A stretch of DNA of 61,150 bases from Lachnospiraceae bacterium (GCA_017458765.1 JAFSZZ010000110.1:1-61150); one strand, 5' to 3'; counted from the stretch's first letter, positions 4,845-53,981 are shown. Notes: generated from the sequence alone by a model not told the origin. Numbers and translations are program-made.

Positions 4845-4861
4845 AACTTCTCCCATTCCGT

Positions 4862-4925: not shown

Positions 4926-4947
4926 TTACCGTGTCTTACCCGAGAAC

Positions 4948-6636
4948 TTACACTCCTGCTCTGTGCAGAAGCTCGTGTTCGTGTCCTTTGATCAGGTCAT
5001 CCCATATACGCTCAATAAGCGGGTTCTCGTCAGTATAACGTATGCTTGAGAGCTGATCTACCTCATATATTCCGTTCATCCTTGCAGTCCTTGTATTGGG
5101 TCCCATCGGAACAGGCTGGCCGCCGCCGAGTATACATCCTCTCCTGCACGCCATAACCTCGACGAAATCATAATGAGCGGTCCCGTCCTTGATCCTGTCA
5201 AGCAGATCTGCAGCATTCTTAAGTCCATGGACAACGGCTATCTTTACTTCTCTTTCACCGAGCTTAACCGTTGCTTCCTTCATGCCCTCTTTACCGCGGA
5301 CACCCGAATATTTGATGTTTTCAAGAGTCGTATGATCCTTATCCGGAGCCAGATGGCGGAGAACCGCTTCAGTAACTCCTCCGGTGATACCAAAGATAGA
5401 AGCTCCGCCTGAAGCCATTGAAAACGGCATGTCGCAGGCTTCACTGTGTAGTGTATCGAATTTGATACCGACCTGTTTGATCATACGTATGATCTCCTGG
5501 GTGGTGATAACTATATCCGTATCCTGACGTCCGTTGGTGAAGTTATCGGGACGGTGTATCTCCGCTTTTTTCGCGGTACATGGCATGATCGCCACAATAT
5601 ATGTGGTCTTTCCCTCTTCCTTATCCTTCTTTGCAAAATACTCCTTTATTACGGGTGAGAACATTCCCATAGGCGACCGGCAGGTACTGATATTGTCTTT
5701 GAATTCAGGATATTTGGTCTCGCAGAACTTAACCCATCCCGGACAGCATGATGTAAACAGCGGAAGCTTCTCTCCCGACTCAAGCCTCTGAGCGAATTCC
5801 CTGGACTCTTCAATAACCGTAAGGTCTGCTCCGAAATTGGTATCATATACCTCGTCAAAGCCCATTATCCTGAGCGCCTTGACCAGCTTGCCCATTGCGT
5901 TCTCGCCCTTTGGCAGGTTGAACCTGTCACCTACGGCGATCCTTACGGCGGGAGCTATCTGGGCGACCACTCTTACATTAGGATCCTCGATCGCATTCCA
6001 GACCTCGGTAACGTTGGTCCTTATCGATATGGCTGCTGTGGGACATACTACGGCGCACTGTCCGCAGCCCACGCAGTCGGTCTCGGCAAGCTGCTTGCCG
6101 AAGGCAGGTGTTATCTGCATTTTTGAGCCTCTGTGGGCGAAATCAATAGCCCCGACAGCCTGATTCTCCGCACAGGTTCTTACACAGTCACCGCAGAGTA
6201 TACATTTGTTGGGATCCCTTACGATACACTCGGAGCTCATGTCTATCGGAAGCTCTTCCTTATTGTTAAGGAATCTCACTGCATGTACGCCTACTCTGTA
6301 GGCAAGGCTTTGAAGCTCGCACATTCCGTTTTTGGTACAGGTTGTACAGTCCCTGCAGTGTGAAGACAGAAGAAGCTCTATTATAAGCTTTCTGTACTGC
6401 TGCAGCTTCTTCGTGTTCGTATGAATGACCATTCCCGGACGGGGCTGCTCGGAACAGGATGCAAACATCTTGCCCCTCTCATCCTCAACCATGCACATTC
6501 TGCATGCGCCGTAAATGGACAGATCCGAATGATAGCAGAAGGTCGGTATATCTATTCCGGCTTTTCTTATAAGAGACAGAATATTCTTTTCACCTTCTAT
6601 AGGCACCTTGATGCCATCTATTGTCATATAATCCAT
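4948..6636 (-). CDS. hydA: [FeFe] hydrogenase catalytic subunit (group A3, bifurcating type)
   Basis: N-terminal 2Fe-2S and 4Fe-4S Cys motifs. H-cluster motifs TSCCPGW, MPCTAKKAE and EVMACRRGCILGGGQP. GGAGGA RBS. Confidence 0.9.
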   Translation of the reverse strand: MDYMTIDGIKVPIEGEKNILSLIRKAGIDIPTFCYHSDLSIYGACRMCMVEDERGKMFASCSEQPRPGMVIHTNTKKLQQYRKLIIELLLSSHCRDCTTCTKNGMCELQSLAYRVGVHAVRFLNNKEELPIDMSSECIVRDPNKCILCGDCVRTCAENQAVGAIDFAHRGSKMQITPAFGKQLAETDCVGCGQCAVVCPTAAISIRTNVTEVWNAIEDPNVRVVAQIAPAVRIAVGDRFNLPKGENAMGKLVKALRIMGFDEVYDTNFGADLTVIEESREFAQRLESGEKLPLFTSCCPGWVKFCETKYPEFKDNISTCRSPMGMFSPVIKEYFAKKDKEEGKTTYIVAIMPCTAKKAEIHRPDNFTNGRQDTDIVITTQEIIRMIKQVGIKFDTLHSEACDMPFSMASGGASIFGITGGVTEAVLRHLAPDKDHTTLENIKYSGVRGKEGMKEATVKLGEREVKIAVVHGLKNAADLLDRIKDGTAHYDFVEVMACRRGCILGGGQPVPMGPNTRTARMNGIYEVDQLSSIRYTDENPLIERIWDDLIKGHEHELLHRAGV

Positions 6637-25900: not shown

Positions 25901-26914
25901 GACGGGAAGTATATGATCCCTGGCCATTGAATAAAACAGCCTGCTTAAAGCATACATATTACCTATCAGACTGGTTATTACAAGAGAAAGCAGTGCAAGC
26001 ATAAGAATATCCACGCCCGCAGCCCCCAGATAGGCATGAGCAGCATAAAAAGGAGGAAGTGCTTCAAGCCCCGAAAGGCTGCCTATGTCATTTATATATT
26101 CAACCCAGCTCCCATATCTTTCGGGATATGCCGTTACCGAAAGAAGAGTCACCATTATATATATAACGGTTGTTACCATTACGGAGACGACCAAAAGACC
26201 GGGTATCTTCTTCCTGTCAAAAGACATTTCCTCGGTCGCATGTGAAATATTCTCGAATCCTATAAAGGCCCAGGGAGATATGACAGCTATTCCCAGTATC
26301 TGGGATATGGCGGACGTGTCATTCAGCAGCAAAGGTGCGGATGATACATTCCTGCCGAAGGATGCCGCCAGAAAACAGGCGGCTATACCGAAGGTGAAGG
26401 TGGCAGCCATGATGATCATCGCAAGATTAATGGCCCGTTTAAGGCGTATAATGAGACAGCCTATAAGAAGCAGTGAAAATATGGACAGCAGTGCTTCACC
26501 CATATATATATCATATCCGAACAGGGTATACAGCCTGCCTTTTTTGAAAACATCTCCCATGAAGATCCTTGCGAACAGAGGAAGTGACGTTGCGTTGGCC
26601 CAGAGGATGGCAAGATAGGTCATTGCAAGGAACCACGCGGTCAGGAATCCGTAGTCGAACCCGAAAACATCGCGGGAATAAGCATATGCGCCTCCGGCCT
26701 CCGGAAAGGCACGCATTAAAACAGCATAATTACGGCTTATTATGAGCATTACGGCTGCACCGCAGATAAGACCCAGCACGCTTCCGAGAGGACCCGCCTG
26801 GGCAAGATATGTATTACAGGTTACAACCAGCGATCCCCATCCGACGCTGGTTCCGATCGAAAACGCCAATGCTCCTTTAAGCGATAAGTGTTTATCAAGG
26901 CTCTGTCTGCTCAT
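22958..26914 (-). CDS. Multidomain c-di-GMP protein: APC-type amino-acid permease + GGDEF + REC + degenerate GGDEF + EAL
   Basis: 12-TM APC-like N-terminus; RIGGDEF; REC (VLIVDDE...MMDLIMPRMNG...LTAD); degenerate GADTF; EAL (EALVRW, EITES, DDFGTGYSS, EGVETEEQ). Start at ATG 26914 with an AAAGGAG RBS; the ORF track start is 26974. Confidence 0.85.
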   Translation of the reverse strand: MSRQSLDKHLSLKGALAFSIGTSVGWGSLVVTCNTYLAQAGPLGSVLGLICGAAVMLIISRNYAVLMRAFPEAGGAYAYSRDVFGFDYGFLTAWFLAMTYLAILWANATSLPLFARIFMGDVFKKGRLYTLFGYDIYMGEALLSIFSLLLIGCLIIRLKRAINLAMIIMAATFTFGIAACFLAASFGRNVSSAPLLLNDTSAISQILGIAVISPWAFIGFENISHATEEMSFDRKKIPGLLVVSVMVTTVIYIMVTLLSVTAYPERYGSWVEYINDIGSLSGLEALPPFYAAHAYLGAAGVDILMLALLSLVITSLIGNMYALSRLFYSMARDHILPVRMAELNHNNIPANAIRFVVLFSILIPFTGRTAIGWIVDVTTIGATLVYAVVSAAAMKVCHQNEDKKGRCLGLAGLVFMILFEAYFLIPNFVSETTVAKETFLLFIAWSVLGFVSFRLVLRKDNERRFGSSVVVWIVLLSLVLFVSFVWMRQTMLSSDAKIKTEVRDYYETGEMKEDDEARVEFVENRLDEQGRETTRTMLIAMGMFGFVLLIMLTNHRYMNRRFMESELRANTDTMTGLKNKHAFIEREKELDAHIRDGLVRDFALVVCDVNGLKQINDTLGHKAGDEWIINAGKMIGEIFQHSPVFRIGGDEFAAILTGRDYNMRSELMRLLHDHSVDHIENGGVVVSGGISDFIHGEDEDLHTVFVRADELMYEEKMLLKNLGASSRDDADAAEDDGENEDSLELMNSLMEEKTIIDLRRSVLIVDDEMINLEILGNSLRSGYDILYALDGIEALEQIREHGDNLALIMMDLIMPRMNGVELIGRLKEDPALKNIPFIVLTADQRAEVECLQLGAADFIPKPYPAAEIIRARVDKCIELSEGRSIIHSTERDGLTNLFNIDYFIRYVHLFDHHYPDTAMDAVVVDVNRFHMINERYGKDYGDEILKNIGENVRELVRQLKGVGCRQGADTFLIYVPHRDDYNGVLEALSEGLGHIDETEDNDRNVTLRLGIYYDADKTIDIERRFDRAKMAADNIRGNYAASIGEYDSVMHEDILFKERLLEDFKNSLGDMQFTTFFQPKFDIRPDVPLLKSAEALVRWDHPEFGIISPGLFIPLLEEHGLIYELDHYVWDETAAYIRYCKDTFGFSVPVSVNVSRIDMLRSDLNEVFDRLLHKYDLTPADLLLEITESAYTGDSDQVITMVNRFRDAGFGIEMDDFGTGYSSLGMLSKLPIDALKMDMSFVHNAFSENRDMRMIELIIDIAEHLKVPVIAEGVETEEQYLTLKEMGCDIIQGYYFSRPVSKEEFSRFVTERSKVNGS

Positions 26915-27082
26915 ATATGCTCCTTTAAATAAAAGATAACTACCCGGGAGTCGCGATGTCACATTTGAACACAAATGTACCGTCCCAGGCAGTTATCATT
27001 ATAACATAAATTAGAATTAAAAAATATAGTTATGACTCCTGAATCAAAGACATGCATAACCTCAGTTGATCATACAGCCCTG

Positions 27083-30599: not shown

Positions 30600-30637
30600 G
30601 ACAAAGGCGCCAACCGATCGGGTTGACGCCTTTGTCT
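30600..30637 (-). terminator. Class-2 hairpin (AGACAAAGGCGTCAACCC...GGTTGGCGCC) between glnN and amt
   Basis: 16-bp stem. The 5' 19 nt match 17/19 with the hairpin at 49753-49793. Confidence 0.55.
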
Positions 30638-30763
30638 GTTTAAATATTCATTCGCAATTCCGTGCTGCTTCGCATCACTTCCTGCTCATGTTGGGGCGGG
30701 TTAATAAACCTTTCATACTTACACAAGCAAGCTTGTGACGTTTTCAGGTTTTTAACCCCGGAA

Positions 30764-32869
30764 TTACACGTAGAACAGAATATCTTCATACTTCGGATAT
30801 GGGAGTATTCCGTCGGGAAGGTATACCTCCAGCGAATCCGCCACACTTCTTACCTGCTCCATATCCTTAAGGATCTCATCATGATAGAACCTGGCCTGTG
30901 CCAGTGAATCCTCCATACTTTCGGCCTTGTCCGTATCATCGGAAAGCTTGCCCACAAGATCGAACAGCCTGTCATATCCGTCGCTTAAGATCCTTATCAT
31001 CTTCATATCCGCCTTGCAGCCAAGATGTGAATCAAGTGCAGATTTTGCGGTTACCGATGCAGTCAGCTGATCCGCGTACTCACCGACCGCAGGCATGAAC
31101 TCTGTAAGTACCATATCCTTAAGAGTCAGGCTCTCGATATGAATAGTCTTGGAGTAATTCTCAAGCAGGATCTCATATCTTGATTCAAGCTCGCTCTCCG
31201 AGAAAATATGATGCTTTTCAAACAGAGCCTTATTCTTATCGGCAACGAAGGCCGGAAGGGCTTCCGGTGTGGATCTTAAGTTGTACAGCCCTCTCTTTTC
31301 TGCCTCCTTAACCCACTCGTCTGTATATCCGTTACCGTTGAAGATCACTCTCTCATGAGCCGTTATAGACTCTTTTACAAGCTCATGAACAGCCGACTCG
31401 ATCCCATCCTCCGGAACATCCTTAAGCTTCTCATAGAACCTTCCAAGTACTTCCGCTACCGCGGTGTTAAGGATCACATTCGGACCCGATACGGATAACG
31501 AGGATCCGAGCGATCTGAACTCGAACTTGTTACCTGTAAAGGCAAACGGTGAAGTCCTGTTCCTGTCGGTATTATCCTTTGTAAAGTGCGGCAGAACCGT
31601 AGTTCCGATGTTCATCTTTGTTGTTCCGCTCTTTTCAAAGAAGGTGTCATTTTTAATGGATTCAACCACCTTCTCAAGCTCTTCTCCGAGGAAGATCGAA
31701 ATGATGGCCGGAGGTGCCTCGTTGGCTCCCAGTCTGTGATCATTCCCGGGACTTGCAACGGATACTCTCATAAGATCGGCATATTCATCCACTGCTTCTA
31801 TTATCGCTGCCAGGAAGATAAGGAACTGTGTATTGTCGGCCGGTGTCTTGCCCGGATCAAGCAGGTTAACTCCGGTGTTTGTGATCATTGACCAGTTGTT
31901 ATGCTTACCGGAACCGTTGATACCTGCGAAGGGTTTCTCGTGGAGCAGACATACAAGGTCATGCTTCTCAGCCACTTTTTTCATTATTTCCATCGTCAGC
32001 TGGTTGTGATCGACCGCTATATTTGTCGTATCGAATACCGGAGCAAGCTCATGCTGGCAGGGTGCCACTTCATTGTGCTTGGTCTTGGCGGGAATACCGA
32101 GCTTCCACAGCTCAAGATCCAGATCATGCATATATGCGGCCACTCTGGGCTTGATCGCTCCGAAATAATGATCCTCCATCTCCTGACCCTTGGGAGGCAG
32201 AGCTCCCAGAAGTGTCCTTCCTGTAAATATCAGATCCTTACGCTGCTTATATGCTTCCTTCTCGATAAGGAAGTATTCCTGCTCGGGTCCCACCGTGGTG
32301 GATACGCCCGTAACATCTGTCTGTCCTATCTTGTTAAGTACTCTTGTAGCTTCCTTTGAAAGCGCATCCATAGATCTTAGAAGCGGTGTCTTCTTATCCA
32401 GCGCTTCACCTGTGTACGAGCAGAAGGCTGTCGGGATATACAGGGTTCCGTCCTTGATAAATGCGGGTGATGTGGGATCCCATGCCGTATAGCCTCTTGC
32501 CTCGAAGGTCGCCCTCAGTCCGCCCGAAGGGAAGCTCGAAGCATCAGGCTCGCCCTTCACGAGCTCCTTGCCGGAGAAATCCATGATGACCTCCCCGTTT
32601 CCTACGGGTGTGATGAAGCTGTCATGCTTCTCCGCCGTGAAGCCGGTCATAGGCTGGAACCAGTGAGTGTAATGTGTTGCTCCGTTCTCAACTGCCCACT
32701 CCTTCATGGCTACCGCAACCGAATTGGCCACATCAAGCTCCAGATGTGTATTATTCTCAATGGTCTTCCTCAAAGCTTTGTAAATATCCTTGGGAAGCTT
32801 GTCTCTCATGACCTTGTCATTAAATACGAGACTCCCGTACAGTTCAGGTATCCTTTGTTCTTTGTTCAT
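30764..32869 (-). CDS. glnN: Glutamine synthetase type III
   Basis: ~700 aa. The N-terminus [25 protein letters not shown] is typical of GSIII. Start at ATG 32869 with an AAAGGAGGAG RBS; the ORF track start is 32953. Confidence 0.88.
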
Positions 32870-32887: not shown

Positions 32888-32930
32888 GCTTTTATAAAGA
32901 AAAAGGTGCCAACTTTTCTGAGCTGACACC
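32888..32930 (-). terminator. Second hairpin plus U-tract inside the glnN leader, 20-60 nt before the start codon
   Basis: Minus strand GGTGTCAGCT-cagaaa-AGTTGGCACC then TTTTTCTTTAT. Confidence 0.5.
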
Positions 32931-32971
32931 ATTGTCTTTTGAAAACACATCATAAGGTTATCACGTTTTTA

Positions 32972-33052
32972 TAAAGAAAAATCGCCTCGGAAATATTTCC
33001 GAAGCGACCTTGCTTACATGAGAAATTATAAACTAATACGTAAATAAGTCAA
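32972..33052 (-). promoter_or_regulatory. glnN promoter plus class-1 leader module
   Basis: Minus strand TTGACT-N16-TATAAT-7nt-GTAAGC AAGGTC GCTTCGGAAATATTTCCGAGGCG-ATTTTTCTTT. Aligns without gaps to 34911-34986 and 51685-51765. Confidence 0.7.
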
Positions 33053-33111: not shown

Positions 33112-34614
33112 TCATGAATATCCCATTAGCGACTCATCCACCGCCCCGGCGGCTGCCTTACCCTCACTTATTGCCCATACGACAAGTGACTGGCCGCGGT
33201 GCATGTCACCTGTAGTAAATACACGGTCACGGCTTGTAGCGTATGCGCCTTCTGCCGTAGCCACGTTGGTTCTTCCGTTTATATCCACCTTAAACGCATC
33301 GGTCACATATTTCTGCGAACCCAGGAAGCCGGCTGCGATAAGCACAAGATCAGCCTTAAGTTCACCTTCGCTTCCCTCTACCGGAACCATCTGCATGCGT
33401 CCCGTTGTCTCATCCTTCTTCGGGGCAAGCTTAACGGTCTTAACCGATGTAAGATTACCCTTCTTATCCTTTACGAATTCAGTAACAGTCGTTTGGTAAA
33501 CTCTCGGATCGGAACCGAACATGAATATGGCCTCCTCCTGACCGTAATCCGTCTTAAGGATCTTCGGCCATTCGGGCCAGGGATTGGAGACGGCACGGCT
33601 CTCGCAGGGCTTGGGCATCATCTCAAGCTGTATGACTGATGCGGCGCCCAGCCGTATCGACGTTCCGACACAGTCATTCCCCGTATCTCCACCACCTATG
33701 ACAACCACGCTCTTACCCTTAAGGCTCTTAAACGAGAAATCCTTCTTGTCGAAGATCTTCGAATAATCATATCCTTCATCGATTATATTCTTTGTAACCT
33801 CTGTAAGAAAATCAACCGCGAAATATATTCCCTTCGCATCTCTTCCGGGTACGTTTATATCCCTTGGATTGGCTGCACCGCAGGCAAGGATCACACGGTC
33901 ATATTCCTTGAGCAGTTCGTCTGCCGTTACATCATTGCCTACATCGACACCGTACTTAAAGATAATACCGCTCTCCTCCATCAGGCTTATCCTTCTGTCA
34001 ATAACACGCTTATCGAGCTTCATATTGGGTATTCCGTATCTTAACAGACCGCCTGCCCTGTCCCGTCTTTCGTATACGGTAACCAGGTGACCTCTCTTGT
34101 TGAGCCAGTATGCGGCCGACAGACCTGAAGGACCGGAGCCTATTACGGCAACCTTCTTCCCTGTACGTACTGCGGGCTTATCCGGCTTCACAAGACCGTT
34201 GGCATATGCATACTCAATTACCGTCTTCTCATTTTCCTTCGTTGATACGGGATCCGAGTGTACCGAAACCGTGCATGCAGCCTCACACAGAGCGGGACAT
34301 ACCCTCGAGGTGAACTCCGGGAAGCAGTGTGTCTTGGACAGCCGTATATATGCCTGCTCAAGGTTCCCGTGATATACATAGTCGTTTATTTCCGGTACAA
34401 GATTGTGCAGGGGACAGCCTGACGCCATTCCTGCGATCATGGTGCCCGCCTGACAGAACGGAACCCCGCATGCCATACATCTTGCGCCCTGAAGCATCTG
34501 TTCCTTTGTAGGGAGCAGAACGTGAAATTCATCGAAATCCTTTATTCGTACAGAGGGCTCTCTTACAGCACCCTCTTTTCTCTCATATTCCATAAATCCT
34601 GTCGGTTTACCCAT
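33112..34614 (-). CDS. gltD: Glutamate synthase small (NADPH) subunit
   Basis: N-terminal Fe-S Cys clusters and two dinucleotide folds (VAVIGSGPSGLSAA, VVVIGGGDTGNDC). Confidence 0.9.
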   Translation of the reverse strand: MGKPTGFMEYERKEGAVREPSVRIKDFDEFHVLLPTKEQMLQGARCMACGVPFCQAGTMIAGMASGCPLHNLVPEINDYVYHGNLEQAYIRLSKTHCFPEFTSRVCPALCEAACTVSVHSDPVSTKENEKTVIEYAYANGLVKPDKPAVRTGKKVAVIGSGPSGLSAAYWLNKRGHLVTVYERRDRAGGLLRYGIPNMKLDKRVIDRRISLMEESGIIFKYGVDVGNDVTADELLKEYDRVILACGAANPRDINVPGRDAKGIYFAVDFLTEVTKNIIDEGYDYSKIFDKKDFSFKSLKGKSVVVIGGGDTGNDCVGTSIRLGAASVIQLEMMPKPCESRAVSNPWPEWPKILKTDYGQEEAIFMFGSDPRVYQTTVTEFVKDKKGNLTSVKTVKLAPKKDETTGRMQMVPVEGSEGELKADLVLIAAGFLGSQKYVTDAFKVDINGRTNVATAEGAYATSRDRVFTTGDMHRGQSLVVWAISEGKAAAGAVDESLMGYS

Positions 34615-34787
34615 AATATTCCTCCTTTTGTTTGCAGTACATGTTCAGAACAGGCCGGAGTGAAGCGTAGACCCGCTTGCTGTGGATTCTTTATGGCATT
34701 ACCTGTTTTGAACAATTACTATTTGTCATAAGTCTGCGGATACCTTATTTCTGCATGCATTTCCTTGTTTGCATTAGGAAAGTCATA

Positions 34788-34819
34788 GAATAGCGAATTT
34801 CATCAGAAATTCGGTATTC
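34788..34819. repeat. 32-nt palindrome family C (gaatagcgaatttc-atca-gaaattcggtattc)
   Basis: A second copy at 42692-42723 matches at 29/32 positions. Confidence 0.8.
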
Positions 34820-34871
34820 GTACTGGACCAGGCTCTGCTGAAAGCAGAGGCGTGTCATGCGGAACGCATGA

Positions 34872-34909
34872 TTTCCGAATGCATTTCCTTGTTTGCATTC
34901 GGAAAGTCA
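34872..34909. repeat. Hairpin repeat family B copy (tttccgaatgc-12 nt-gcattcggaaa)
   Basis: Homologous to 21575-21619. A partial copy lies at 34755-34787. Confidence 0.75.
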
Positions 34910-34910
34910 T

Positions 34911-34986
34911 AAAAAAAAACGCCCCGGATATTCCGAAGCGTCTTTGCTAACAATACTAATTATATGTCACAGATGTTTAATGTCAA
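34911..34986 (-). promoter_or_regulatory. gltD promoter plus class-1 leader module (also serves as terminator of the kinase gene)
   Basis: Minus strand TTGACA-N16-TATAAT-7nt-GTTAGC AAAGAC GCTTCGGAATATCCGGGGCG-TTTTTTTTT. The -35 starts 10 nt after the kinase stop codon. Confidence 0.7.
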
Positions 34987-45081: not shown

Positions 45082-48000
45082 TCAGAGGATATGTGGAACA
45101 GGCTTTGGAGCCTGATTATGTGTGCTTGCGTAGAAGGCTTCGATCTGTGCTTCTTCGTAGGACATACCCTTCTCCTCGAACTGACCCGTCAGGATCATCA
45201 GCTTCCTGTAATCCTCGGGGATTATCTTCTTAAATCTGGGAAGATAAGCATCGAAATTATCGAGGATATCCTTAGCCTTAAGCGAACCGGTATAATTGTA
45301 ATGCTTCGTGAGCATTCCCTTTAATTCATTACAGTCATTCTTATTCTCAACCGGCTCCATGAGCACAAGATCCCTGTTAAGGTTTCTGTAAAGTGTGTTG
45401 TGTTCATCAAGGACATAGGCAACACCGCCGCTCATTCCGGCTGCAAAGTTCTTGCCGGTGGGACCTATGACAACCACGCGTCCTCCTGTCATGTATTCAC
45501 AGCCGTGCTCTCCCACACCCTCAACTACGGCATATGCGCCCGAGTTCCTGACTGCGAACCTTTCACCTGCCATTCCTTCGAAATAAGCCTCGCCCGAGGT
45601 TGCGCCATACAGTGCGACATTACCTATGATTATATTGTTCTCGGCGTCATAGCCCGCATTTTCGGGAGCACGTACTATGATCTTGCCGCCGGACAGTCCC
45701 TTGCCAATGTAATCGTTGCTGTCACCGTACAGATTAAGTGTGAGCCCCTTCGGTATAAATGCACCGAAGCTCTGCCCTCCGTGTCCGTGGCAGTCAAGTA
45801 CGATCGTATCTTCATTAAGTCCTTCGGGCACCTGTCTTGTTATCTCGCTTCCGAGCAGAGTGCCGAAGGTCCTGTCCGTATTTGTAAGCGTGATCTTCTC
45901 GCGGCATACCTTTCCCGATCTGATCGCATCCATGACAGATCTCTTATTTAACAGACAGCTCTCATCCTTGGTCTTTTCAAGCTCAAAATCAAATACCCTG
46001 GCAGGATCGAATACACGTGCATCCGATTCTTCATACTCAAGGATCCCTGAAATATCTATCTTCGCGGCATTGCCGCCAAGCCCGTCCTTACGTTTAAGCA
46101 GGTCTGTACGTCCGGCCATTTCGGATATCGTATGCACTCCGAGTCTTGCCATATATTCCCTTAATTCCTGTGCGATAAAGCGCATGAAGTTCTCCACATA
46201 TTCCGCCTTGCCGGTAAACCGCTTGCGAAGCTCCGGGTTCTGCGTTGCCACTCCGAAGGGACAGGTATCAAGATTACATACCCTCATCATCGCACAGCCG
46301 AGAGTCACAAGAGGTGCAGTTGCAAAGCCGAATTCCTCAGCTCCAAGAAGAGCCGCGATCGCCACATCCCTTCCGCTCATCAGCTTGCCGTCAGTCTCTA
46401 TTACCACACGGTCCCTTAATCCGTTACGGATAAGCGTCTTGTGGGTTTCTGCAAGTCCCAGTTCCCAGGGAAGTCCCGCATTATGTATGGAGCTTATCGG
46501 AGCTGCACCCGTACCGCCGTCGTATCCGGATATAAGGATAACCTGAGCTCCTGCCTTGGCAACGCCGGCAGCTATGGTTCCCACTCCCGCTTCCGATACC
46601 AGCTTGACGCTGATACGTGCGTTTTTATTTGAATTCTTAAGGTCGTAGATAAGCTGTGCCAGATCCTCGATAGAGTATATGTCATGATGAGGCGGCGGTG
46701 ATATAAGGCTTACGCCGGGTGTTGAATGCCTGGTCTTGGCGATCCAGGGATATACCTTGCCGGCCGGAAGATGACCGCCTTCACCGGGCTTGGCTCCCTG
46801 TGCCATCTTGATCTGTATTTCCTTTGCACTTACAAGATATTTGCTTGTAACACCGAACCTTCCGCTGGCCACCTGCTTGATCGCAGAGCTGCGGTTTTCA
46901 GTGCCGGATCCGGAACCTGAATAGCCCGCCTTATTTCCTTCGCCTTTAAACATACCCGACGATTCCATACGCTCGTCGCTCTCACCGCCCTCGCCGCTGT
47001 TTGACTTTCCATGAAGCCGGTTCATTGCAACGGCAAGCGCCTCATGAGCCTCCTCGGATATGGAACCGTATGACATTGCGCCTGTCTTAAACCTTGTAAC
47101 GATGCTGTCTACGCTCTCGACCTCGGAAATATCTATTCCCTGTTCCGGATAATTAAAATCAATGATACTGCGTATATAGCCTGTCCGCTCACTGTCCACC
47201 ATTTCGGTATATTTCCTGAACTTGCCGTAATCGCCCTCTCTGGTGGCACTCTGGAGCATATGGATGGTCTGCGGATTGTATCTGTGCTCTTCACCCTGCG
47301 AACGCATCTTGTGGCGTCCTATCGAATCGGGGGTCAGATCGGCTTCAAGTCCCAGCGGATCGAACGCCTTCGAATGCTGCTCATCCGCTGCTGTTGCGAT
47401 ATCATCAAGAGAAATACCGCCTATCCTGCTGACCGTACCGGTGAAATATCTGTCTATTACCTTCTGCGATATACCGAGGCATTCGAAGATCTTGGAGCCC
47501 TGATAGGACTGCACTGTTGAGATTCCCATCTTCGATGCTATCTTGATTATGCCCCCGAGGACCGCCCTGTCATAGTCATCAACCGCTGCGTAGTAATCCT
47601 TATCAAGACTTCCTTCATCTATAAGTTCGCCGATCACCGCATGGGCAAGATACGGATTGACAGCACTCGCACCGTAGCCTAACAGCAGTGCGAAATGATG
47701 TACTTCCCTTGGCTCGCCGGATTCAAGCACCAGTGACATGGCAGTGCACTTTTTGGTATCGACCAGATGCTTATGGACTGCAGCAACAGCAAGAAGCGAA
47801 GGGATCGCGACATGATTCTCATCAACACCCCTGTCGGAAAGTATGAGTATATTGGCACCCTCGCGGTATACCTTGTCAACCTCGACGAAAAGATGATCAA
47901 TAACACGAGTTATCGGAGTGCTCTTGTAATACAGTATGGATACCCTGGCCACCTTGAAGCCGGGCCTGTTCATCTTTTCTATCTTGAGAAGGTCAAGATC

Positions 48001-49719
48001 GGTAAGGATGGGATTCTCGACCTTCAGCATATGGCAGTTATGAGCCTGCTCCTCAAGAAGATTACCGTTCTTGCCAAGGTAGACAGTCGTTGAGGTTACT
48101 ATCTTCTCCCTGGCAGCATCGATAGGCGGATTGGTAACCTGGGCAAACATCTGCTTGAAATAGTTAAACAACGGTTGATATTGTTTGGAGAGTACCGCTA
48201 TCGGCGTATCGATACCCATAGCTCCTATGTTTTCGGCACCTGTAAGTGCCATGGTCTCGATGCTTTCCCTGCATTCTTCATAGGTATACCCGAAGGCCTT
48301 CTTAAGCTGCTGCTTCTCTCTGTCTGTATAAGAAGTGACTTTGCAGTTAGGGATTTTCAGCTCATGCAGGGTGAGCAGGTTGGAATCAAGCCATTCACCG
48401 TATGGCTCCTTATTGGCGTAGTATTCCTTGAGTTCTTCATCGGACACTATTCTGCCCTGTACGGTGTCAATCAGCAGCATTTTGCCGGGATGCAGGCGTT
48501 CCTTCTTTAGGATGTGTTCCTCCGGTAATTCCAGAACTCCCACCTCCGATGAAAGTATCAGCCTGTCGTCATCCATTATGTAATATCTTGAGGGTCTCAG
48601 ACCGTTCCTGTCAAGGATCGCACCCATTACATCACCGTCCGAGAACAGTATCGATGCCGGACCGTCCCAGGGCTCCATCATGGTTGCGTAATACTGATAG
48701 AAATCACGCACCTCCTGGGATATCGTATCGTTGTGCGCCCATGGCTCGGGAACCATCATCATGGCGGCCAGCGGAAGGTCGATCCCACTCATAGACAGGA
48801 ATTCGAGCGTATTGTCAAACATTGCCGAATCGGAACCCCACGCCGGGATAACGGGTAATACCTTGGTCATATCCTCTGAACTGAACATACCGGTATACAT
48901 GGTTTCCTCACGGGCAAGCATCTTGTCAACGTTACCCTTGATTGTATTTATCTCCCCGTTATGCACCATCATCCTGTTGGGATGCGCCTTTTCCCAGCTG
49001 GGGGTCGTATTGGTGGAGAAACGTGAGTGTACCATGGCAATCGCCGACTTATATGAAGCATCGTCAAGATCCGTAAAGAAGGTACGGAGCTGACCGACAA
49101 GGAACATTCCCTTGTACACGATCGTACGGCATGACAGTGAGCATACGTAGGTATTGTCGGTACTCTGCTCGAATACACGTCTTATAACATACAGCTTTCT
49201 GTCGAAATCCTTATCTGTTTCCGTTTCTTCGGGACGCCCCACGAAGCCCTGATAAATAGCCGGCATACAGTCACGCGCCCGCTTGCCGAGTACTTTCTCA
49301 TCAACTTTAACTTTACGCCATCCAAGAAAGTCACAGCCCTCTTTTCTTACTATCACCTCAAACATCTTCATGGCGCGCTTCCTTAACAGCTCATCAACCG
49401 GAAAGAAGAACATACCTACGCCGTAACCGCGCTTCTTTTGAAGCTCTATACCAAGCTCCTTACATTCCTTTACAAAGAATTCATGGGGGATACGTGTGAG
49501 TATGCCTACACCGTCGCCCGTCTCACCGGACGCATCCTTTCCGGCGCGGTGTTCAAGATGTTCAACTATCTTTAATGCATCCGATACCACGGCGTGATCG
49601 TCCTTACCGTTTATGTTCACGATAGCTCCGATACCGCAGTTCTCATGTTCATCAAGCATAGCATGGTTCCGGATATCCTCCGGGTTATCATTTAATAAAT
49701 CCTTTGTCTGATCTGCCAT
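45082..49719 (-). CDS. gltB: Glutamate synthase large subunit
   Basis: Ntn amidotransferase domain (HENCGIGAIV), a central FMN/3Fe-4S domain and a C-terminal GXGXG beta-helix; 1545 aa; AAGGAGGA RBS. Confidence 0.93.
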   Translation of the reverse strand: MADQTKDLLNDNPEDIRNHAMLDEHENCGIGAIVNINGKDDHAVVSDALKIVEHLEHRAGKDASGETGDGVGILTRIPHEFFVKECKELGIELQKKRGYGVGMFFFPVDELLRKRAMKMFEVIVRKEGCDFLGWRKVKVDEKVLGKRARDCMPAIYQGFVGRPEETETDKDFDRKLYVIRRVFEQSTDNTYVCSLSCRTIVYKGMFLVGQLRTFFTDLDDASYKSAIAMVHSRFSTNTTPSWEKAHPNRMMVHNGEINTIKGNVDKMLAREETMYTGMFSSEDMTKVLPVIPAWGSDSAMFDNTLEFLSMSGIDLPLAAMMMVPEPWAHNDTISQEVRDFYQYYATMMEPWDGPASILFSDGDVMGAILDRNGLRPSRYYIMDDDRLILSSEVGVLELPEEHILKKERLHPGKMLLIDTVQGRIVSDEELKEYYANKEPYGEWLDSNLLTLHELKIPNCKVTSYTDREKQQLKKAFGYTYEECRESIETMALTGAENIGAMGIDTPIAVLSKQYQPLFNYFKQMFAQVTNPPIDAAREKIVTSTTVYLGKNGNLLEEQAHNCHMLKVENPILTDLDLLKIEKMNRPGFKVARVSILYYKSTPITRVIDHLFVEVDKVYREGANILILSDRGVDENHVAIPSLLAVAAVHKHLVDTKKCTAMSLVLESGEPREVHHFALLLGYGASAVNPYLAHAVIGELIDEGSLDKDYYAAVDDYDRAVLGGIIKIASKMGISTVQSYQGSKIFECLGISQKVIDRYFTGTVSRIGGISLDDIATAADEQHSKAFDPLGLEADLTPDSIGRHKMRSQGEEHRYNPQTIHMLQSATREGDYGKFRKYTEMVDSERTGYIRSIIDFNYPEQGIDISEVESVDSIVTRFKTGAMSYGSISEEAHEALAVAMNRLHGKSNSGEGGESDERMESSGMFKGEGNKAGYSGSGSGTENRSSAIKQVASGRFGVTSKYLVSAKEIQIKMAQGAKPGEGGHLPAGKVYPWIAKTRHSTPGVSLISPPPHHDIYSIEDLAQLIYDLKNSNKNARISVKLVSEAGVGTIAAGVAKAGAQVILISGYDGGTGAAPISSIHNAGLPWELGLAETHKTLIRNGLRDRVVIETDGKLMSGRDVAIAALLGAEEFGFATAPLVTLGCAMMRVCNLDTCPFGVATQNPELRKRFTGKAEYVENFMRFIAQELREYMARLGVHTISEMAGRTDLLKRKDGLGGNAAKIDISGILEYEESDARVFDPARVFDFELEKTKDESCLLNKRSVMDAIRSGKVCREKITLTNTDRTFGTLLGSEITRQVPEGLNEDTIVLDCHGHGGQSFGAFIPKGLTLNLYGDSNDYIGKGLSGGKIIVRAPENAGYDAENNIIIGNVALYGATSGEAYFEGMAGERFAVRNSGAYAVVEGVGEHGCEYMTGGRVVVIGPTGKNFAAGMSGGVAYVLDEHNTLYRNLNRDLVLMEPVENKNDCNELKGMLTKHYNYTGSLKAKDILDNFDAYLPRFKKIIPEDYRKLMILTGQFEEKGMSYEEAQIEAFYASTHNQAPKPVPHIL

Positions 49720-49752
49720 TTATATTTCCTCCTTATGACGGTTTACAGCCTC

Positions 49753-49793
49753 AAAAAAGCGCCAATCCTGCAATAGGATTGACGCCGTTGTCT
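49753..49793 (-). terminator. Class-2 hairpin plus U-tract between asnB and gltB
   Basis: Minus strand AGACAACGGCGTCAATCC-tattgca-GGATTGGCGC-TTTTTTG. Homologous to 30600-30637. Confidence 0.65.
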
Positions 49794-49854
49794 TAAAATA
49801 AAAAAGAAAATTCACTTTTGCATCCACTGTTTCAACGCTTGACCGGTGCATGGC

Positions 49855-51585
49855 TCATTCGCCGGAAGCACCGTAGTTACTCAGAACCCTCGCGGACGGG
49901 TCGTTCACGTCACAGCCTTCCCATTCTTTATTCGGCATCCAGAAATCCTTGACCATCTGCGACTGCCCCGGGTAATATTTCTCGAATATCTCGCGGTACA
50001 GAAGCGACTCCTTGGTAAACGGTCTTGCATGATCATATTTTTTGATCAGCTCTTCATATTCTTTATCAGAATATTTGCCTTCTGCATATTCCTTCAGGTG
50101 ATCCACCATCGAATGACCCACCGCATCGGAGAATGCCGCCTTCTCCCTCATCAGGATATCATACGGAAGGAAATCACCCTCGAAAGCATGCCTTAACAGG
50201 TACTTTCCCTTGTTATAAACATTCATCTTCTTGGCAGGATCTATACTCATGACATATTTAACAAAGTCAAGATCGCCAAACGGTACCCTCGCCTCCAGTG
50301 AGTTGACCGATATACATCTGTCGGCTCGGAGTACATCATACATATGTATCTCATGGATACGCTTGACAGCTTCCTTCTGGAATTCCTCAGGCGAGGGTGC
50401 AAAATCGGTGTACTTATATCCGAACAGTTCATCCGAGATTTCGCCTGTAAGGAGTACCCTGATATCGGTCTGTTCGTGTATAGCCTTGCAGACAAGGTAC
50501 ATTCCCATGCTGGCTCTTATGGTCGTGATATCGTAGGTTCCAAGAAGCTTAATAACGTTCGGAAGCTCGCGGATAACGTCTTCCTTCGTGATTATTACCT
50601 CTGTGTGATCACTGCCCAGATAGTCAGCTACCTGCTTCGCATATTTAAGATCGATGGCATCTGTGTTCATACCGATCGCGAAGGTCTTTATCGGCCTGTC
50701 TGACAGCTTGGAAGCTACCGCACATACAAGCGAGCTGTCAAGTCCTCCGCTTAACAGGAAGCCTACCGGAGCATCGGAATCAAGCCTCTTCTCAATACCC
50801 TTGACCAGTCTGTCATGAATGTTCCTGCATACTGTATCAAGGTCATCATCCACTACCTTATCGACCCTTGTTATATCGTTGTAGCAGACGAACTCTCCGT
50901 CTTTATAATAATGGCCCGGCGGGAACGGAAAGATCTCATCCACCAGTCCGACAAGGTTCTTTGCCTCGGATGCGAATACGATTTCCTTGTCCTTGGCTGC
51001 CTTATACTCTTCATCGGAAGTTTTACCTGTTGTACCTGATTTATATGCAATTCTTCCTTCACCTTTTATCCTTTCATCGGTTATTCCTTCATCGGCTCTT
51101 ATCCTTTCGCCGGTTATTCCTTCATCGGCTGTTATCCCGGACTTCACATGCCCATAATACAGCGGCCGTATGCCGATCGGGTCACGCGCGGCTATGAATG
51201 ATCTCTCTTTCCCGTCATATATTATGCATGCGAACTCGGCATCCAGCTTCTCAAACATATCCGTACCGTACTGCTCATACATGGGCAACAGCAGCTCACA
51301 GTCGGAATCACTCTTAAATGTATAGCCCTTTTTCTTAAGCTCCTCCTTTATGGGACGAAAGCCATATATTTCACCGTTGCAGACAAGGAAATTACTGTTA
51401 AGGTTAAACGGCTGCATACCCTCCTCGCTAAGTCCCATTATCGACAGACGCTCAAATCCCATGATTCCGCCCGGAATATCAATTATCCTCTGCATATCCG
51501 GCCCCCTCGATATCGTCCTGTCGAAATGTTCCCTGAATTCATCCTTTGTAAGGCTTTTGCCAAGATAACCCATTATGGAACACAT
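49855..51585 (-). CDS. asnB: Asparagine synthase (glutamine-hydrolysing) with a repeat-encoded insert
   Basis: MCSIMGY (Cys2 nucleophile) and the PP-loop FLLSGGLDSS. Insert ...GITADEGITGERIRADEGITDERIKGEG... AAAGGAGG RBS. Confidence 0.9.
   Translation of the reverse strand: MCSIMGYLGKSLTKDEFREHFDRTISRGPDMQRIIDIPGGIMGFERLSIMGLSEEGMQPFNLNSNFLVCNGEIYGFRPIKEELKKKGYTFKSDSDCELLLPMYEQYGTDMFEKLDAEFACIIYDGKERSFIAARDPIGIRPLYYGHVKSGITADEGITGERIRADEGITDERIKGEGRIAYKSGTTGKTSDEEYKAAKDKEIVFASEAKNLVGLVDEIFPFPPGHYYKDGEFVCYNDITRVDKVVDDDLDTVCRNIHDRLVKGIEKRLDSDAPVGFLLSGGLDSSLVCAVASKLSDRPIKTFAIGMNTDAIDLKYAKQVADYLGSDHTEVIITKEDVIRELPNVIKLLGTYDITTIRASMGMYLVCKAIHEQTDIRVLLTGEISDELFGYKYTDFAPSPEEFQKEAVKRIHEIHMYDVLRADRCISVNSLEARVPFGDLDFVKYVMSIDPAKKMNVYNKGKYLLRHAFEGDFLPYDILMREKAAFSDAVGHSMVDHLKEYAEGKYSDKEYEELIKKYDHARPFTKESLLYREIFEKYYPGQSQMVKDFWMPNKEWEGCDVNDPSARVLSNYGASGE
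51068..51141. repeat. 2.2 x 33-bp in-frame tandem repeat inside asnB
   Basis: tatcctttcatcggttattccttcatcggctct / tatcctttcgccggttattccttcatcggctgt / tatcccgg. Confidence 0.9.
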
Positions 51586-51611
51586 TTTTCTTTGCCTCCT
51601 TTAATATGTCT

Positions 51612-51674
51612 CAACTATTCAGAACGACACATATATTATAAATATAGTGCGCCGAGTCATTATCTGAACAGTTG
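51612..51674. repeat. Degenerate family-A inverted-repeat pair in the asnB leader
   Basis: caactattcagaacg ... cattatctgaacagttg. The internal cacatatattataaatat resembles the right end of the 14305-14558 element. Confidence 0.55.
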
Positions 51675-51684
51675 CCTGAATTTA

Positions 51685-51765
51685 CAAAAGAAGAAGGCGC
51701 CTCGACTTACGTCGAAGCGCCCTCGCTTACAGTAAATATTATATAAACAGTTTTCCGGTTGTCAA
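51685..51765 (-). promoter_or_regulatory. asnB promoter plus class-1 leader module
   Basis: Minus strand TTGACA-N16-TATAAT-7nt-GTAAGC GAGGGC GCTTCGACGTAAGTCGAGGCGCC-TTCTTCTTTTG. Confidence 0.7.
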
Positions 51766-51856
51766 GATTTTTTTTACAAGCTTTTTTACAAGCTTTTATA
51801 CAAGCTTATTTACAAGCTTTTTTCATAAGCTATTTTTCATAATCTTTTTACAAGCC
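51766..51856. repeat. 7 x ~12-bp tandem T-tract repeat (TTTTTTACAAGC) abutting the asnB -35
   Basis: TACAAGC/CATAAGC cores at 51775, 51787, 51799, 51811, 51824, 51838 and 51849. Confidence 0.85.
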
Positions 51857-51940
51857 ATTTAATAAACTGATTCTCATAAACTATTTTTTACATATTTGTT
51901 TTGGGTTATATATGTTTAGTATCTGTGTGTTTTCTCCGGC

Positions 51941-52107
51941 GAACACGCAATAATTGGATTTGTCTCGATTTGCGTGTCGAAAAAAATTACGCTGCGAGAA
52001 ATTTACACGCGGTTTTCCGCTTTTATCCCCATTTGCGTGTCCGGACTTTCAGCCACGAAAAAAATTCGACACGCGGATTAAGGTGAAGCTGCAAAATGCG
52101 TGTCTGG
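51941..52107. repeat. 3 x ~63-bp degenerate unit, each an inverted repeat ACACGC-N23/24-GCGTGT
   Basis: ACACGC at 51943, 52005 and 52069. GCGTGT at 51972, 52035 and 52098. Confidence 0.8.
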
Positions 52108-52127
52108 ATCAACAATTTAAAGAAATG

Positions 52128-52285
52128 ATAGTATGATTAAAGGGTCAAAAGCCTGTCAACACCACAAGCTTGCGACGCGTAGCTAGTCCTTTAGGGCTTG
52201 ATGGTGGGTAGGATTGTGAGAGTGCGAAGCACGGAACAATCCGTTAATCAAAAAAAGTATAGTTTTGACCCCTAAATCATAGTAT
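52128..52285. mobile_element. 158-bp MITE-like element with ~23-bp imperfect terminal inverted repeats
   Basis: atagtatgattaaagggtcaaaa ... ttttgacccctaaatcatagtat (20/23). The internal 27-mer tgcgacgcgtagctagtcctttagggc is shared (1 mismatch, inverted) with 14485-14511. Confidence 0.5.
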
Positions 52286-52331
52286 TGAAAAGAAATCACC
52301 CATTACAAAGAAACCATTCATTACAAAGACA

Positions 52332-53981
52332 TCACTCATTGTAAACCTTCAGATCCAGCATGTTTTCAGATCTGGCCACTATCAGGGCTGCCGCCATATC
52401 GCCTGTTATATTGGTCATCGTATCGAACATATCCAGGACCGGATATATAGGTATGATAAGTCCCAATGCTTCAACAGGCACTCCCAGCACCTTAAGTATT
52501 ATACCTATGCATAAAAGGCCTGAACCGGGGACTCCCGGAGCACCAAGCGAAAGAAGTACAATAGTGATAAAAAGCGGCAGAATACTCGATGCCGGAATAT
52601 CTATTCCGTAGGCTCTGGCAAGAAAAATCCCCAGGATAACCTGAAGCATGCAGGCTGCGTCCATATTTATGGTCGCACCGAGCGGAATAGAGAAATTGGC
52701 AATTGCCGGAGATATACCAAGCTTTTCCGTGCAAACCCTCATATTGGTAGGTACCGCCGCGGAACTGGAGGTAAGGGTAAAGCCGGTAAGCATACCCTCC
52801 CTGGCTTTTTTGTAGAACTTAAGCGGATTTAACCGGCCCATTATCAGAATAAGCAAACCGTATACTATCATAATACCCGCACAGGAAAGAATCTGAAGCA
52901 TAACCGCACCCAGAAGTGACAGAAACGCATCGGTTTTCAATTCCGTTATCATAAGTGCTATGGAACAGAATGCCACAGCAGGAATAAACTTTGCGATAAG
53001 GCTTGTTATCGTTAGGAAAAGGGAATTCAAGCTCTCAAATAATTCCTTCAGATTAGCTGCACTTTCTCCCAATAATCCAAGGCTCACTCCGCACAGTATC
53101 GCCAGAAGAATAAGCTGAAGCGTACTTGTTTTCAAGAAAGGCTCAAGGAAATTGGAAGGGACTATATCTACTATGGTATCTATAAGGGATGTATTCGCCT
53201 CAGTATTTATGTTAACCTGATCCATAACCTGATTTCCGGAAAGGGCGAATCCCGGTTCTCCCGGCTTAAAAGTCATTGAAATCCCCAGTGCAAGGAATAA
53301 GGCAAACGTAGTTGTCAGAAAATACATGCTTACTATTTTTATTCCCAGCTTTCCGAAACGTGAAGCATTATCAAACTGCGTGAAGCATGTGACTATAGAG
53401 AAAAAAACGACCGGTGCGATGATTATTTTCAGGGCACTCATAAACATGGTCCTGAACGGGGAAAGAATAAAGGAGCATAATCCGGTGCTTATTGGTCCGG
53501 GTATAACAAACTTTGCCAGAAGGCCGAATATAACACCAAGAAACATGCCCCAAAGGGTTGTATAAAGAGTCTTCTTTGAGTTGTCCGAAAGGATCCTGAC
53601 GCTGTTCACGCCGTTCCTGTTGCCATACTTATACTTCTCGCCGTAAGCCTTCAGAACCACTGCTCTTATGGCATCAACCGTCATTCCGTCTTCTGAGGTA
53701 TCCCCTTCATCAAGCTCCTGTGAATAGATATCGAACCCCTCCCCCTTCATGCTAAGGGTAACGCTGACCTCACCCATCATTCTTTTAATATCGACCAGGA
53801 ATTGACTGTTACCGTTTGCATGCCGGATAAACCTTGTCAGGGTCTCTTCAAACAGAAGTTCATTTCTCAGAATCTGTTTCTTATCAATCCCCATCCCGAC
53901 AAGAGAGTCATGGATAAATGTGTTCGCCTCATCCATGTAACCGGATTTATCTGTTGAAAATAATTTCCTTACTCTTTTCAT
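52332..53981 (-). CDS. Dicarboxylate/amino acid:cation symporter (DAACS) with a ~135-aa cytoplasmic N-terminal extension
   Basis: DAACS core motifs TSSSAAVPTNM and IPLGATINMDAA. The N-terminal soluble domain has no match I can name. Confidence 0.8.
   Translation of the reverse strand: MKRVRKLFSTDKSGYMDEANTFIHDSLVGMGIDKKQILRNELLFEETLTRFIRHANGNSQFLVDIKRMMGEVSVTLSMKGEGFDIYSQELDEGDTSEDGMTVDAIRAVVLKAYGEKYKYGNRNGVNSVRILSDNSKKTLYTTLWGMFLGVIFGLLAKFVIPGPISTGLCSFILSPFRTMFMSALKIIIAPVVFFSIVTCFTQFDNASRFGKLGIKIVSMYFLTTTFALFLALGISMTFKPGEPGFALSGNQVMDQVNINTEANTSLIDTIVDIVPSNFLEPFLKTSTLQLILLAILCGVSLGLLGESAANLKELFESLNSLFLTITSLIAKFIPAVAFCSIALMITELKTDAFLSLLGAVMLQILSCAGIMIVYGLLILIMGRLNPLKFYKKAREGMLTGFTLTSSSAAVPTNMRVCTEKLGISPAIANFSIPLGATINMDAACMLQVILGIFLARAYGIDIPASSILPLFITIVLLSLGAPGVPGSGLLCIGIILKVLGVPVEALGLIIPIYPVLDMFDTMTNITGDMAAALIVARSENMLDLKVYNE

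Follow-up and report, generated by a model that had tools for sequence, protein, structure and literature searches.

The asnB promoter in a 61,150-nt stretch of Lachnospiraceae DNA, referred to here as the window, leads directly into a short hairpin. The two together form a module that recurs before other nitrogen genes and appears, from its distribution, to be a common cis-element of the Lachnospiraceae nitrogen-assimilation regulon. We are highly confident that the module is a regulated, promoter-proximal attenuator of that regulon. The first nucleotides of its predicted RNA can fold in two mutually exclusive ways, and, most probably, the module serves as the RNA target for an antiterminator protein of the ANTAR type. 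On balance we lean towards a full model that would combine a constitutive promoter, early termination by default and antitermination by a NitR-like ANTAR protein under nitrogen limitation.

The asnB leader and related copies

The top promoter-like site between positions 49000 and 56000 was the asnB promoter, which scored 12/12 in the consensus scan. Both hexamers were present, and the spacer fell within the 16-18 nt range of sigma-70/sigma-A promoters. The -10 hexamer is followed by seven nucleotides, ATTTACT, and then by GTAAGCGAGG, whose first base is 51730. The predicted 5' end of the asnB transcript is GUAAGCGAGG. Matches among sequencing runs were low-depth assembled contigs of related strains or came from unclassified runs, and none covered 51621-52125. 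Past ATTTACT, the order from 5' to 3' is GTAAGCGAGG, GCGCTTCGAC, GTAA, GTCGAGGCGCC and TTCTTCTTTTG. The features of this locus and of two further copies in the window are as follows.

51760-51765, minus strand: -35 hexamer TTGACA of the asnB promoter (consensus scan 12/12, 16-nt spacer)
51738-51743, minus strand: -10 hexamer TATAAT (consensus scan; whole promoter identical in the orthologue L241)
51730, minus strand: predicted transcription start, a G, the 8th nucleotide past the -10 hexamer (promoter geometry only)
51715-51728, minus strand: candidate antiterminator mini-hairpin AAGC[GAGGGC]GCUU, +3 to +16 (4-bp stem, hexaloop)
51693-51724, minus strand: terminator hairpin, 14 pairs, with an 11-bp core GGCGCUUCGAC/GUCGAGGCGCC and loop GUAA (folding and family covariation)
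51686-51695, minus strand: U-rich tract UUCUUCUUUU, overlapping the last pairs of the extended stem (sequence)
51583-51692, minus strand: remaining asnB leader, with the Shine-Dalgarno sequence AGGAGG at 51595-51599 and ATG at 51583-51585
45082-51585, minus strand: genes under the asnB copy, asnB (49855-51585) and gltB, glutamate synthase large subunit (45082-49719) (Pfam)
32969-33052, minus strand: second module copy, before the type III glutamine synthetase gene glnN (30764-32869), then amt-PII and purF (49.2 bits)
34906-34986, minus strand: third module copy, before the glutamate synthase small subunit gene (33112-34614) (45.6 bits)

The core stem, GGCGCTTCGAC / GTCGAGGCGCC, has 11 bp including one U.G pair and is capped by the GUAA loop; TTCTTCTTTT comes after the extended stem. 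Nine of the 14 pairs in the extended stem are G-C and the U-tract UUCUUCUUUU follows directly, which is the anatomy of an intrinsic terminator. The 46-nt RNA starting at 51730 folded with an energy of -27.8 kcal/mol (z = -5.8), and none of 200 shuffled sequences was equally stable. The hairpin lies about 100 nt upstream of asnB-gltB. A preliminary description of this DNA had recognized TTGACA-N16-TATAAT, a gap of 7 nt, GTAAGC GAGGGC and an 11-bp stem, and every one of these elements was recovered in its place on the minus strand. It had also called the loop a GNRA loop. This is correct for the asnB copy (GUAA), but the feature was not conserved: the loop is AUUG in L241, and loop length across the family ranged from 3 to ~25 nt. 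Finally, it had argued that no preceding gene could account for the hairpin as its terminator. Upstream on this strand, the first gene, which codes for a sodium:dicarboxylate symporter, ends at 52332, 566 nt before the -35 hexamer, so the asnB hairpin is not the symporter terminator and the argument stands.

Downstream of the terminator, the asnB leader contains a large second hairpin that was not kept in orthologues, and L241 has a shorter leader that is unrelated here. In the predicted fold of the full leader, the U-rich tract after the terminator paired with the Shine-Dalgarno region and enclosed a hairpin of ~70 nt (51600-51692, minus strand). This hairpin region, unconserved in L241, may be an inserted palindrome. 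Within asnB itself, a 33-bp in-frame tandem repeat (51054-51137, 2.2-2.6 copies) lies in an insertion of ~50 aa, and AsnB has 576 aa compared with 526 aa in most orthologues.

The other side of the promoter is also rich in repeats. Seven tandem copies of the 12-bp unit GCTTGTAAAAAA (51770-51855, minus strand) lie directly upstream of the asnB -35 hexamer, and may represent phased A-tracts (curved DNA or an UP element) or protein sites. Because the repeat was absent from the closest orthologous promoter, that of L241, we rejected it as a part of the module. About 5-6 repeats like TTGCGTGTC / GACACGCAA, in both orientations, occupy 51940-52110 between the tandem repeat and a Clostridiales-1 RNA (RF01699). 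Two copies of this RNA were found, at 52134-52250 on the plus strand and 30624-30766 on the minus strand, with scores of 49.6 and 48.2 bits, just above threshold. The former is on the strand opposite to the asnB promoter, ~370 nt upstream of it, and its part at ~52201-52244 matched many unrelated contigs in rumen RNA runs. The latter fills the glnN-amt intergenic space in sense orientation. Clostridiales-1 RNA was absent from 17 related loci and was discarded as a general partner of the module. An 18-bp tandem repeat (52289-52340, 2.9 copies) was also noted at the 3' end of the symporter gene and just beyond it.

The shared motif GTAAGCRAGGNCGCTTCG, allowing up to 3 mismatches, occurred three times in the window against 0.17 expected, and the pattern of promoter plus GTAAGC occurred twice against 0.00 expected. 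A covariance model built from relatives retrieved exactly these three window copies (E = 8e-10 to 3e-8), in all of which the parts have the same order. Since they precede asnB-gltB, glnN-amt-PII-purF and the GOGAT small subunit gene, all three copies head nitrogen-assimilation operons; Pfam and NCBIfam checks of the downstream genes covered the window genes. In a search of all 4227 Rfam families, the asnB module stayed below every gathering threshold, and the only gathering-level matches in the window were the two Clostridiales-1 RNAs, both elsewhere. The Enterococcus sRNA Ref55 (RF02838) matched the asnB copy with 30.1 bits against a threshold of 43, and the other two copies were unmatched. 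We rejected this identity and took the match as a generic terminator similarity.

Some neighboring features of the other two copies were also observed. In the glnN leader, a second terminator-like hairpin, GGTGTCAGC...GTTGGCACC followed by TTTTTC (32905-32930, minus strand), lies between the module and the start codon and could act as a second checkpoint. The 335-nt leader of the GOGAT small subunit gene contains a direct repeat of ~45 nt (34750-34905, minus strand), each copy of which can form a hairpin of 9-10 bp, CCGAATGCA...TGCATTCGG; this repeat may be a different leader element. Following the glnN-amt-purF genes, 22958-26974 on the minus strand encodes a 1338-aa protein with amino-acid-permease, GGDEF, receiver and EAL parts. 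In the closest relative (L241, 1-2329), the orthologue of this protein ends ~70 nt before the asnB module. Binding of cyclic di-GMP to the ANTAR protein NasT has been reported (PMC10783516), and on that footing a link between amino-acid sensing, cyclic di-GMP and the switch is conceivable.

The module was then followed beyond the window. A first scan of reference genomes (596 Gb) relied on an 18-nt pattern that was too loose: nearly all of its 120 matches were chance occurrences in unrelated phyla, and the real ones were confined to two Blautia loci. In each of the two Blautia genomes a pair of divergent modules was present, one heading glnN and the other purF. A more specific pattern, applied to metagenome contigs, yielded 120 loci, of which 93 contained the full module, chiefly from gut and rumen samples. 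The family thus gained about 100 further copies with the arrangement TTGACA-N16/17-TAnnnT, 9-11 nt, motif, hairpin and U-tract, and with U runs of 5-9 in the other members. Among 54 non-redundant copies, the -35 hexamer was TTGACA in 47, the spacer was 16 or 17 nt in 45, and the motif began 9-11 nt past the -10 box in 45. This nearly fixed distance places the element at the very start of the predicted transcript. It also bears out the earlier proposal that the hairpin is part of a shared leader module, as does the recurrence of the module before asnB orthologues that were picked by protein similarity alone. A covariance model built from 41 copies added almost no further copies within the collected loci.

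Among 65 non-redundant copies whose downstream gene could be called, similarity to the window proteins and the N-terminal sequence identified the first downstream ORF as glnN in 32 cases, amt-PII in 15 and purF in three, with one case each of ureA, pyrG, dapF, an amino-acid ABC ATPase, asnB and gltD. The module was always in sense orientation, 60-340 nt upstream of the nitrogen gene, and no other good promoter lay between. The gene order asnB-gltB was also found in L244, and asnB-pyrG-purF-gltB in L253 and L254. When all ORFs around ~95 module loci were clustered in search of a regulator, only enzymes and unrelated two-component and PTS genes recurred. A GlnR/TnrA-type operator was considered and rejected on inspection: TGTGT-N8-ACACA occurs in some Blautia promoters, with a spacing of 18 rather than 17 bp, and was unconserved.

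Two predicted folds of the leader RNA

The terminator hairpin was examined for conservation at the RNA level. In an alignment of 41 sequences, 98.1% of the cells paired and 47 cells showed a double change; none of 500 shuffles matched either the pairing or the covariation. Sliding the partner by one column reduced pairing to 56-61%. The search pattern itself accounted for much of the sequence invariance in the metagenome set, so we assembled a second, less pattern-shaped set of 14 leaders, consisting of the three window copies and copies obtained through protein homology, a partner in the locus or the covariance model. In this set 97.8% of the cells paired, with 20 double-change cells, and again none of 500 shuffles scored as high. 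About one cell in eight (~12%) was G.U or U.G. Such a pair would be A.C on the opposite strand, so the structure has been selected in the sense RNA. The covariance model likewise scored the reverse strand 25-40 bits lower. Overall, the evidence favours a sense-strand RNA hairpin over a DNA operator or a symmetric insulator, and the sense-strand specificity of the G.U pairs upholds the preliminary view that the structure belongs to the leader.

The two arms of the terminator behaved differently. The 5' tail and 5' arm, RUAAGC RARGNY GCUUYG, were almost invariant, whereas the 3' arm drifted through wobble-compatible changes. This is the pattern expected if the 5' part pairs with two partners and is also read by a protein. 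A second partner is indeed available. The AAGC of the tail is complementary to GCUU in the 5' arm, so that the first 16-18 nt of the predicted transcript, with the family consensus AAGC[RARGNY]GCUU, can fold into a mini-hairpin of 4-5 bp with a six-base loop. Its loop and 3' strand (+7 to +16) lie inside the terminator 5' arm (+7 to +20), which makes the two folds mutually exclusive. The first 18 nt of the asnB leader alone folded into the mini-hairpin with -4.8 kcal/mol, and the first 18-19 nt did so in all ten leaders that were folded (-1.6 to -5.1 kcal/mol). The four core pairs formed in 54 of 56 cells of the 14-leader set, with one compensatory U-A. In the variant L141, the change of A-U to U-A keeps the mini-hairpin and creates an A.C mismatch in the terminator.

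Statistical support for the mini-hairpin was weaker. Its covariation in the 14-leader set was not significant (80 of 500 shuffles were as good), since the element hardly varies, and the folding energy of the asnB copy was no better than that of shuffled sequences (z = -0.9).

A1 and G4 have been reported as the determinants of ANTAR hexaloops (PMC3369931). All 14 leaders presented a short stem of at least 3 bp with a hexaloop, as in ANTAR-target RNA, and loop positions 2 (A) and 4 (G) were invariant among them. Eight of the 14 had A1, as did nearly all metagenome copies. The glnN, amt, gltD and aminotransferase-operon leaders have A at position 1. The window asnB copy has G there, as does every one of the five other asnB-type leaders, of which four precede asnB orthologues and the fifth is a further copy in L241. 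These asnB-type leaders (window asnB, two in L241, and one each in L253, L254 and L244) share AAGCGARGG. In the G1 loops, G1 can pair with C6 or U6 to leave a tetraloop. The G1 subclass may differ in affinity, or may simply reflect common descent. No tandem second hexaloop hairpin was found upstream, where only 1-4 nt separate the predicted start from the mini-hairpin, and the family alignment contained no conserved one in the apical part or the 3' arm of the terminator.

ANTAR genes and the proposed mechanism

No ANTAR gene was found in the 61-kb window, and no module lay within 6 kb of the ANTAR genes in Blautia-type loci. An ANTAR gene turned up independently of the hexaloop reasoning, in the genomic contexts of asnB orthologues: on one such contig, a gene for a receiver plus ANTAR protein lies two genes upstream of the module. 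In two Lachnospiraceae MAGs (L253 and L254), a module precedes genes for an aminotransferase, a GS-like protein (390 aa), a REC-ANTAR protein (195 aa) and glmS, and a second module stands before the adjacent asnB-pyrG-purF-gltB. In Blautia and other Lachnospiraceae, the ANTAR gene directly follows a GS-like gene of 387-391 aa at the end of carA-carB nitrogen clusters. The succession from GS-like to ANTAR gene was always immediate, with a gap of 11-28 nt (L253, 8803-10588; L247-L252, ~4815-6591).

The ANTAR proteins matched Rv1626 and EutV. Their receivers have an invariant Asn at the position of the phospho-acceptor Asp and lack the acidic pair, which marks them as pseudo-receivers of the AmiR-like kind. 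Such proteins are probably controlled by a partner. The residue aligned near the G4-stacking tyrosine of EutV was an invariant histidine, in an alignment counted by eye with an uncertain numbering offset. The truncated GS-like neighbor fell far short of the GlnA model cutoff. Going by gene adjacency only, and by the example of AmiC-AmiR and NasS-NasT, it may be the sensor partner of the ANTAR protein.

In the full model, the near-consensus sigma-A promoter would fire constitutively, with the transcript starting at or beside G51730. The mini-hairpin, being transcribed first, would form first and would sequester 10-11 of the 14 nt of the terminator 5' arm. Unless held, it would then give way to the terminator, which is far more stable. 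To judge from its anatomy, a strong intrinsic terminator would have formed by about +45, so that the default product would be an RNA of ~45 nt and asnB-gltB would be off. Under nitrogen limitation, a pseudo-receiver ANTAR protein, presumed to be NitR/AmiR-like and encoded elsewhere in the same genome, would bind the hexaloop hairpin and block the terminator, and RNA polymerase would read into the operon. The product of the GS-like neighbor gene in relatives would be a possible sensor partner. The idea of termination and antitermination in this leader, raised in the preliminary description, fits the findings.

Some observations tell against the full model. A single hexaloop hairpin lies between the predicted start and the terminator, compared with two in canonical ANTAR leaders. 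The asnB class has G1, and the covariation of the mini-hairpin was non-significant. The window holds no ANTAR gene, and the Blautia ANTAR genes have no module nearby. Furthermore, the window for capture would last only ~25 nt of synthesis, which is short without a recruitment hairpin.

An alternative is a regulated attenuator that works without ANTAR. In that case, the reader of the invariant 5' 18-20 nt would be a different trans factor, for which the truncated GS-like protein, a PII-linked protein or a small RNA are candidates, or these nucleotides would form a minimal riboswitch for a nitrogen metabolite fused to the terminator. The single hairpin, the variable loop position 1, the absence of an ANTAR gene from the window and from the surroundings of most modules, and the lack of an Rfam match at threshold all agree with it. 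Very small riboswitches embedded in terminators are known, for example the HMP-PP/thiS class. However, in two genomes the ANTAR operon is itself headed by a module and sits beside a module-controlled operon, the hexaloop carries the ANTAR determinant G4 and mostly A1, and 20 nt with a variable apical loop offer scant room for a ligand pocket. We consider this reading rather unlikely. One form of it, in which the 5'-terminal 18-20 nt would not be an ANTAR site but a new minimal class of regulatory RNA, fused to its terminator and starting at the first nucleotides of the transcript, we judge unlikely. Such an element could be read directly by a nitrogen metabolite or by another factor such as the truncated GS-like protein and, if real, would be the master cis-element of nitrogen control in a dominant bacterial group of the gut and rumen.

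It is quite unlikely that the structure is unregulated and acts as an mRNA-stabilizing 5' hairpin, as a dampener that constitutively lowers the output of a strong promoter, or as an insulator that terminates transcription in both directions and lies at the promoter by chance. In minimum-free-energy folds, the A-rich 5' tail did pair with the U-tract and beyond to give a long blunt hairpin, and the reverse strand also scored weakly as a hairpin. A stabilizer, however, needs neither a U-tract nor an invariant 5' arm, and the reverse-strand deficit of 25-40 bits speaks against an insulator. The restriction to nitrogen operons across families, the fixed position relative to the start site and the sense-specific G.U pairs are also difficult to reconcile with an unregulated structure.

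An inverted repeat that abuts the promoter, with one half nearly invariant, might alternatively act at the DNA level, as an operator spanning +1 to +40 and bound by a repressor of the nitrogen regulon, the RNA hairpin being incidental. This is very improbable: the two halves lie anywhere from 3 to ~25 nt apart, the second half does not keep its sequence but changes in G.U-compatible ways, and a U-tract always follows. Equally improbable is a stand-alone sRNA gene whose product would be the terminated ~45-nt hairpin RNA, for instance a decoy titrating a regulator as EutX/Rli55 titrates EutV: the strong promoter, the strong terminator and the sub-threshold Ref55 similarity of the asnB copy (30 bits vs 43) would suit it, but the module is always in sense, 60-340 nt before a nitrogen gene with no other good promoter between, and the other two window copies lack a Ref55 match. 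A promoter-bound antiterminator of the Q type was rejected, as no -10-like pause element with the key bases was present.

Comparison with known systems

The ANTAR-controlled leaders are the nearest known counterparts of the module. The leaders of eut in Enterococcus (EutV), nasF in Klebsiella (NasR) and amiE in Pseudomonas (AmiR) resemble it in a hexaloop with G4 and usually A1, in a hairpin whose 3' strand doubles as the 5' strand of an intrinsic terminator, and in the association with nitrogen-metabolism genes and, for the modules of two MAGs, with an ANTAR gene in the same cluster. The module differs from them in having one hairpin and no recruitment hairpin P1. Its hairpin is also only 2-4 nt from the predicted start, the closing pairs are GC/GC, and the asnB subclass has G1. 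Canonical ANTAR leaders contain two hairpins joined by a linker of 5-12 nt, and antitermination by EutV needed both (PMC3369931, PMC8934654). The minimal ANTAR binding unit is nevertheless a single hexaloop, in which G4 is flipped out onto an aromatic residue (PMC8934654). If our full model is true, the module would be a natural case in which antitermination works through one ANTAR hexaloop right at the 5' end of a transcript, an arrangement suggested to be possible by the 2022 structural work and absent among known ANTAR leaders. For Butyrivibrio, Eubacterium eligens and Roseburia, the hit table of the 2012 dual-hairpin survey gives only 'hypothetical protein(s)', and under the Lachnospiraceae names checked there it places no match before nitrogen-assimilation genes. 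To that extent, the survey is consistent with a single-hairpin element that a dual-hairpin search would miss.

NitR of C. acetobutylicum and C. saccharobutylicum is a regulator with receiver-like and ANTAR parts in a GS-GOGAT cluster. For the clusters of this kind in C. acetobutylicum and C. thermocellum, an ANTAR regulator of the NitR type has been put forward (PMC4676874). NitR and Clo1313_2030 of C. thermocellum are like the proteins found here in that a receiver-like and ANTAR protein is encoded beside a glutamine-synthetase gene, in a clostridial nitrogen-assimilation cluster and with antitermination as the proposed mode of action (PMC4676874). They are unlike them in that the GS neighbor linked to the module is a truncated 390-aa paralogue below the GlnA cutoff and the receiver has no phospho-acceptor Asp. 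No defined RNA target of NitR or Clo1313_2030 was found in the searchable literature. The AmiC-AmiR and NasS-NasT pairs share with the present one an ANTAR protein that phosphorylation cannot control, or does not, and whose gene adjoins that of a candidate ligand-sensing partner. The difference is that the partner here, as gene adjacency suggests, would be a GS-like protein.

Two systems outside the ANTAR group are also similar in design. The Bacillus subtilis pyrG leader has a terminator near the start site that events at the transcript's 5' end override, and pyrG itself is a member of the module regulon. Neither leader has space for an antiterminator upstream, so it is the RNA's own 5' end that competes with the terminator 5' arm. 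In B. subtilis pyrG this occurs when G residues are added reiteratively in a CTP-sensitive manner. The window copies begin with GUAAGC and have no homopolymer run, which makes slippage of the pyrG kind implausible, and reiterative transcription was rejected. The RAT sites of BglG/LicT are also single weak hairpins that overlap a terminator and are stabilized by a protein. They differ in their size of ~29 nt, their internal loops and unrelated sequence, and in the CAT-PRD proteins that bind them, which are tied to the sugar PTS.

In the human colon and the rumen, Lachnospiraceae rank with the most abundant bacteria, and their nitrogen sensing is largely uncharted. The apparent regulon of the cassette includes GS-III, Amt-PII, GOGAT, asparagine synthetase, PurF, PyrG and urease, and a common cis-element would offer a simple sequence handle by which to predict the nitrogen regulon from genomic and metagenomic sequences. 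That a truncated glutamine-synthetase-like protein is paired with a pseudo-receiver ANTAR protein suggests a glutamine-sensing circuit. With ~85 bp for promoter plus switch, the cassette may also be an attractive genetic part for anaerobes. ANTAR systems cluster on nitrogen metabolism, and ANTAR control of nitrogen genes is an established theme (PMC3369931). Such control and NitR-like proteins in clostridial clusters were thus already known. Relative to the sources searched, what is new is the compact cassette of promoter and switch, the placement of its single hexaloop at the very beginning of the predicted transcript, its apparent role as the shared leader of the Lachnospiraceae nitrogen regulon, and the pairing of a GS-like gene with a pseudo-receiver ANTAR gene.
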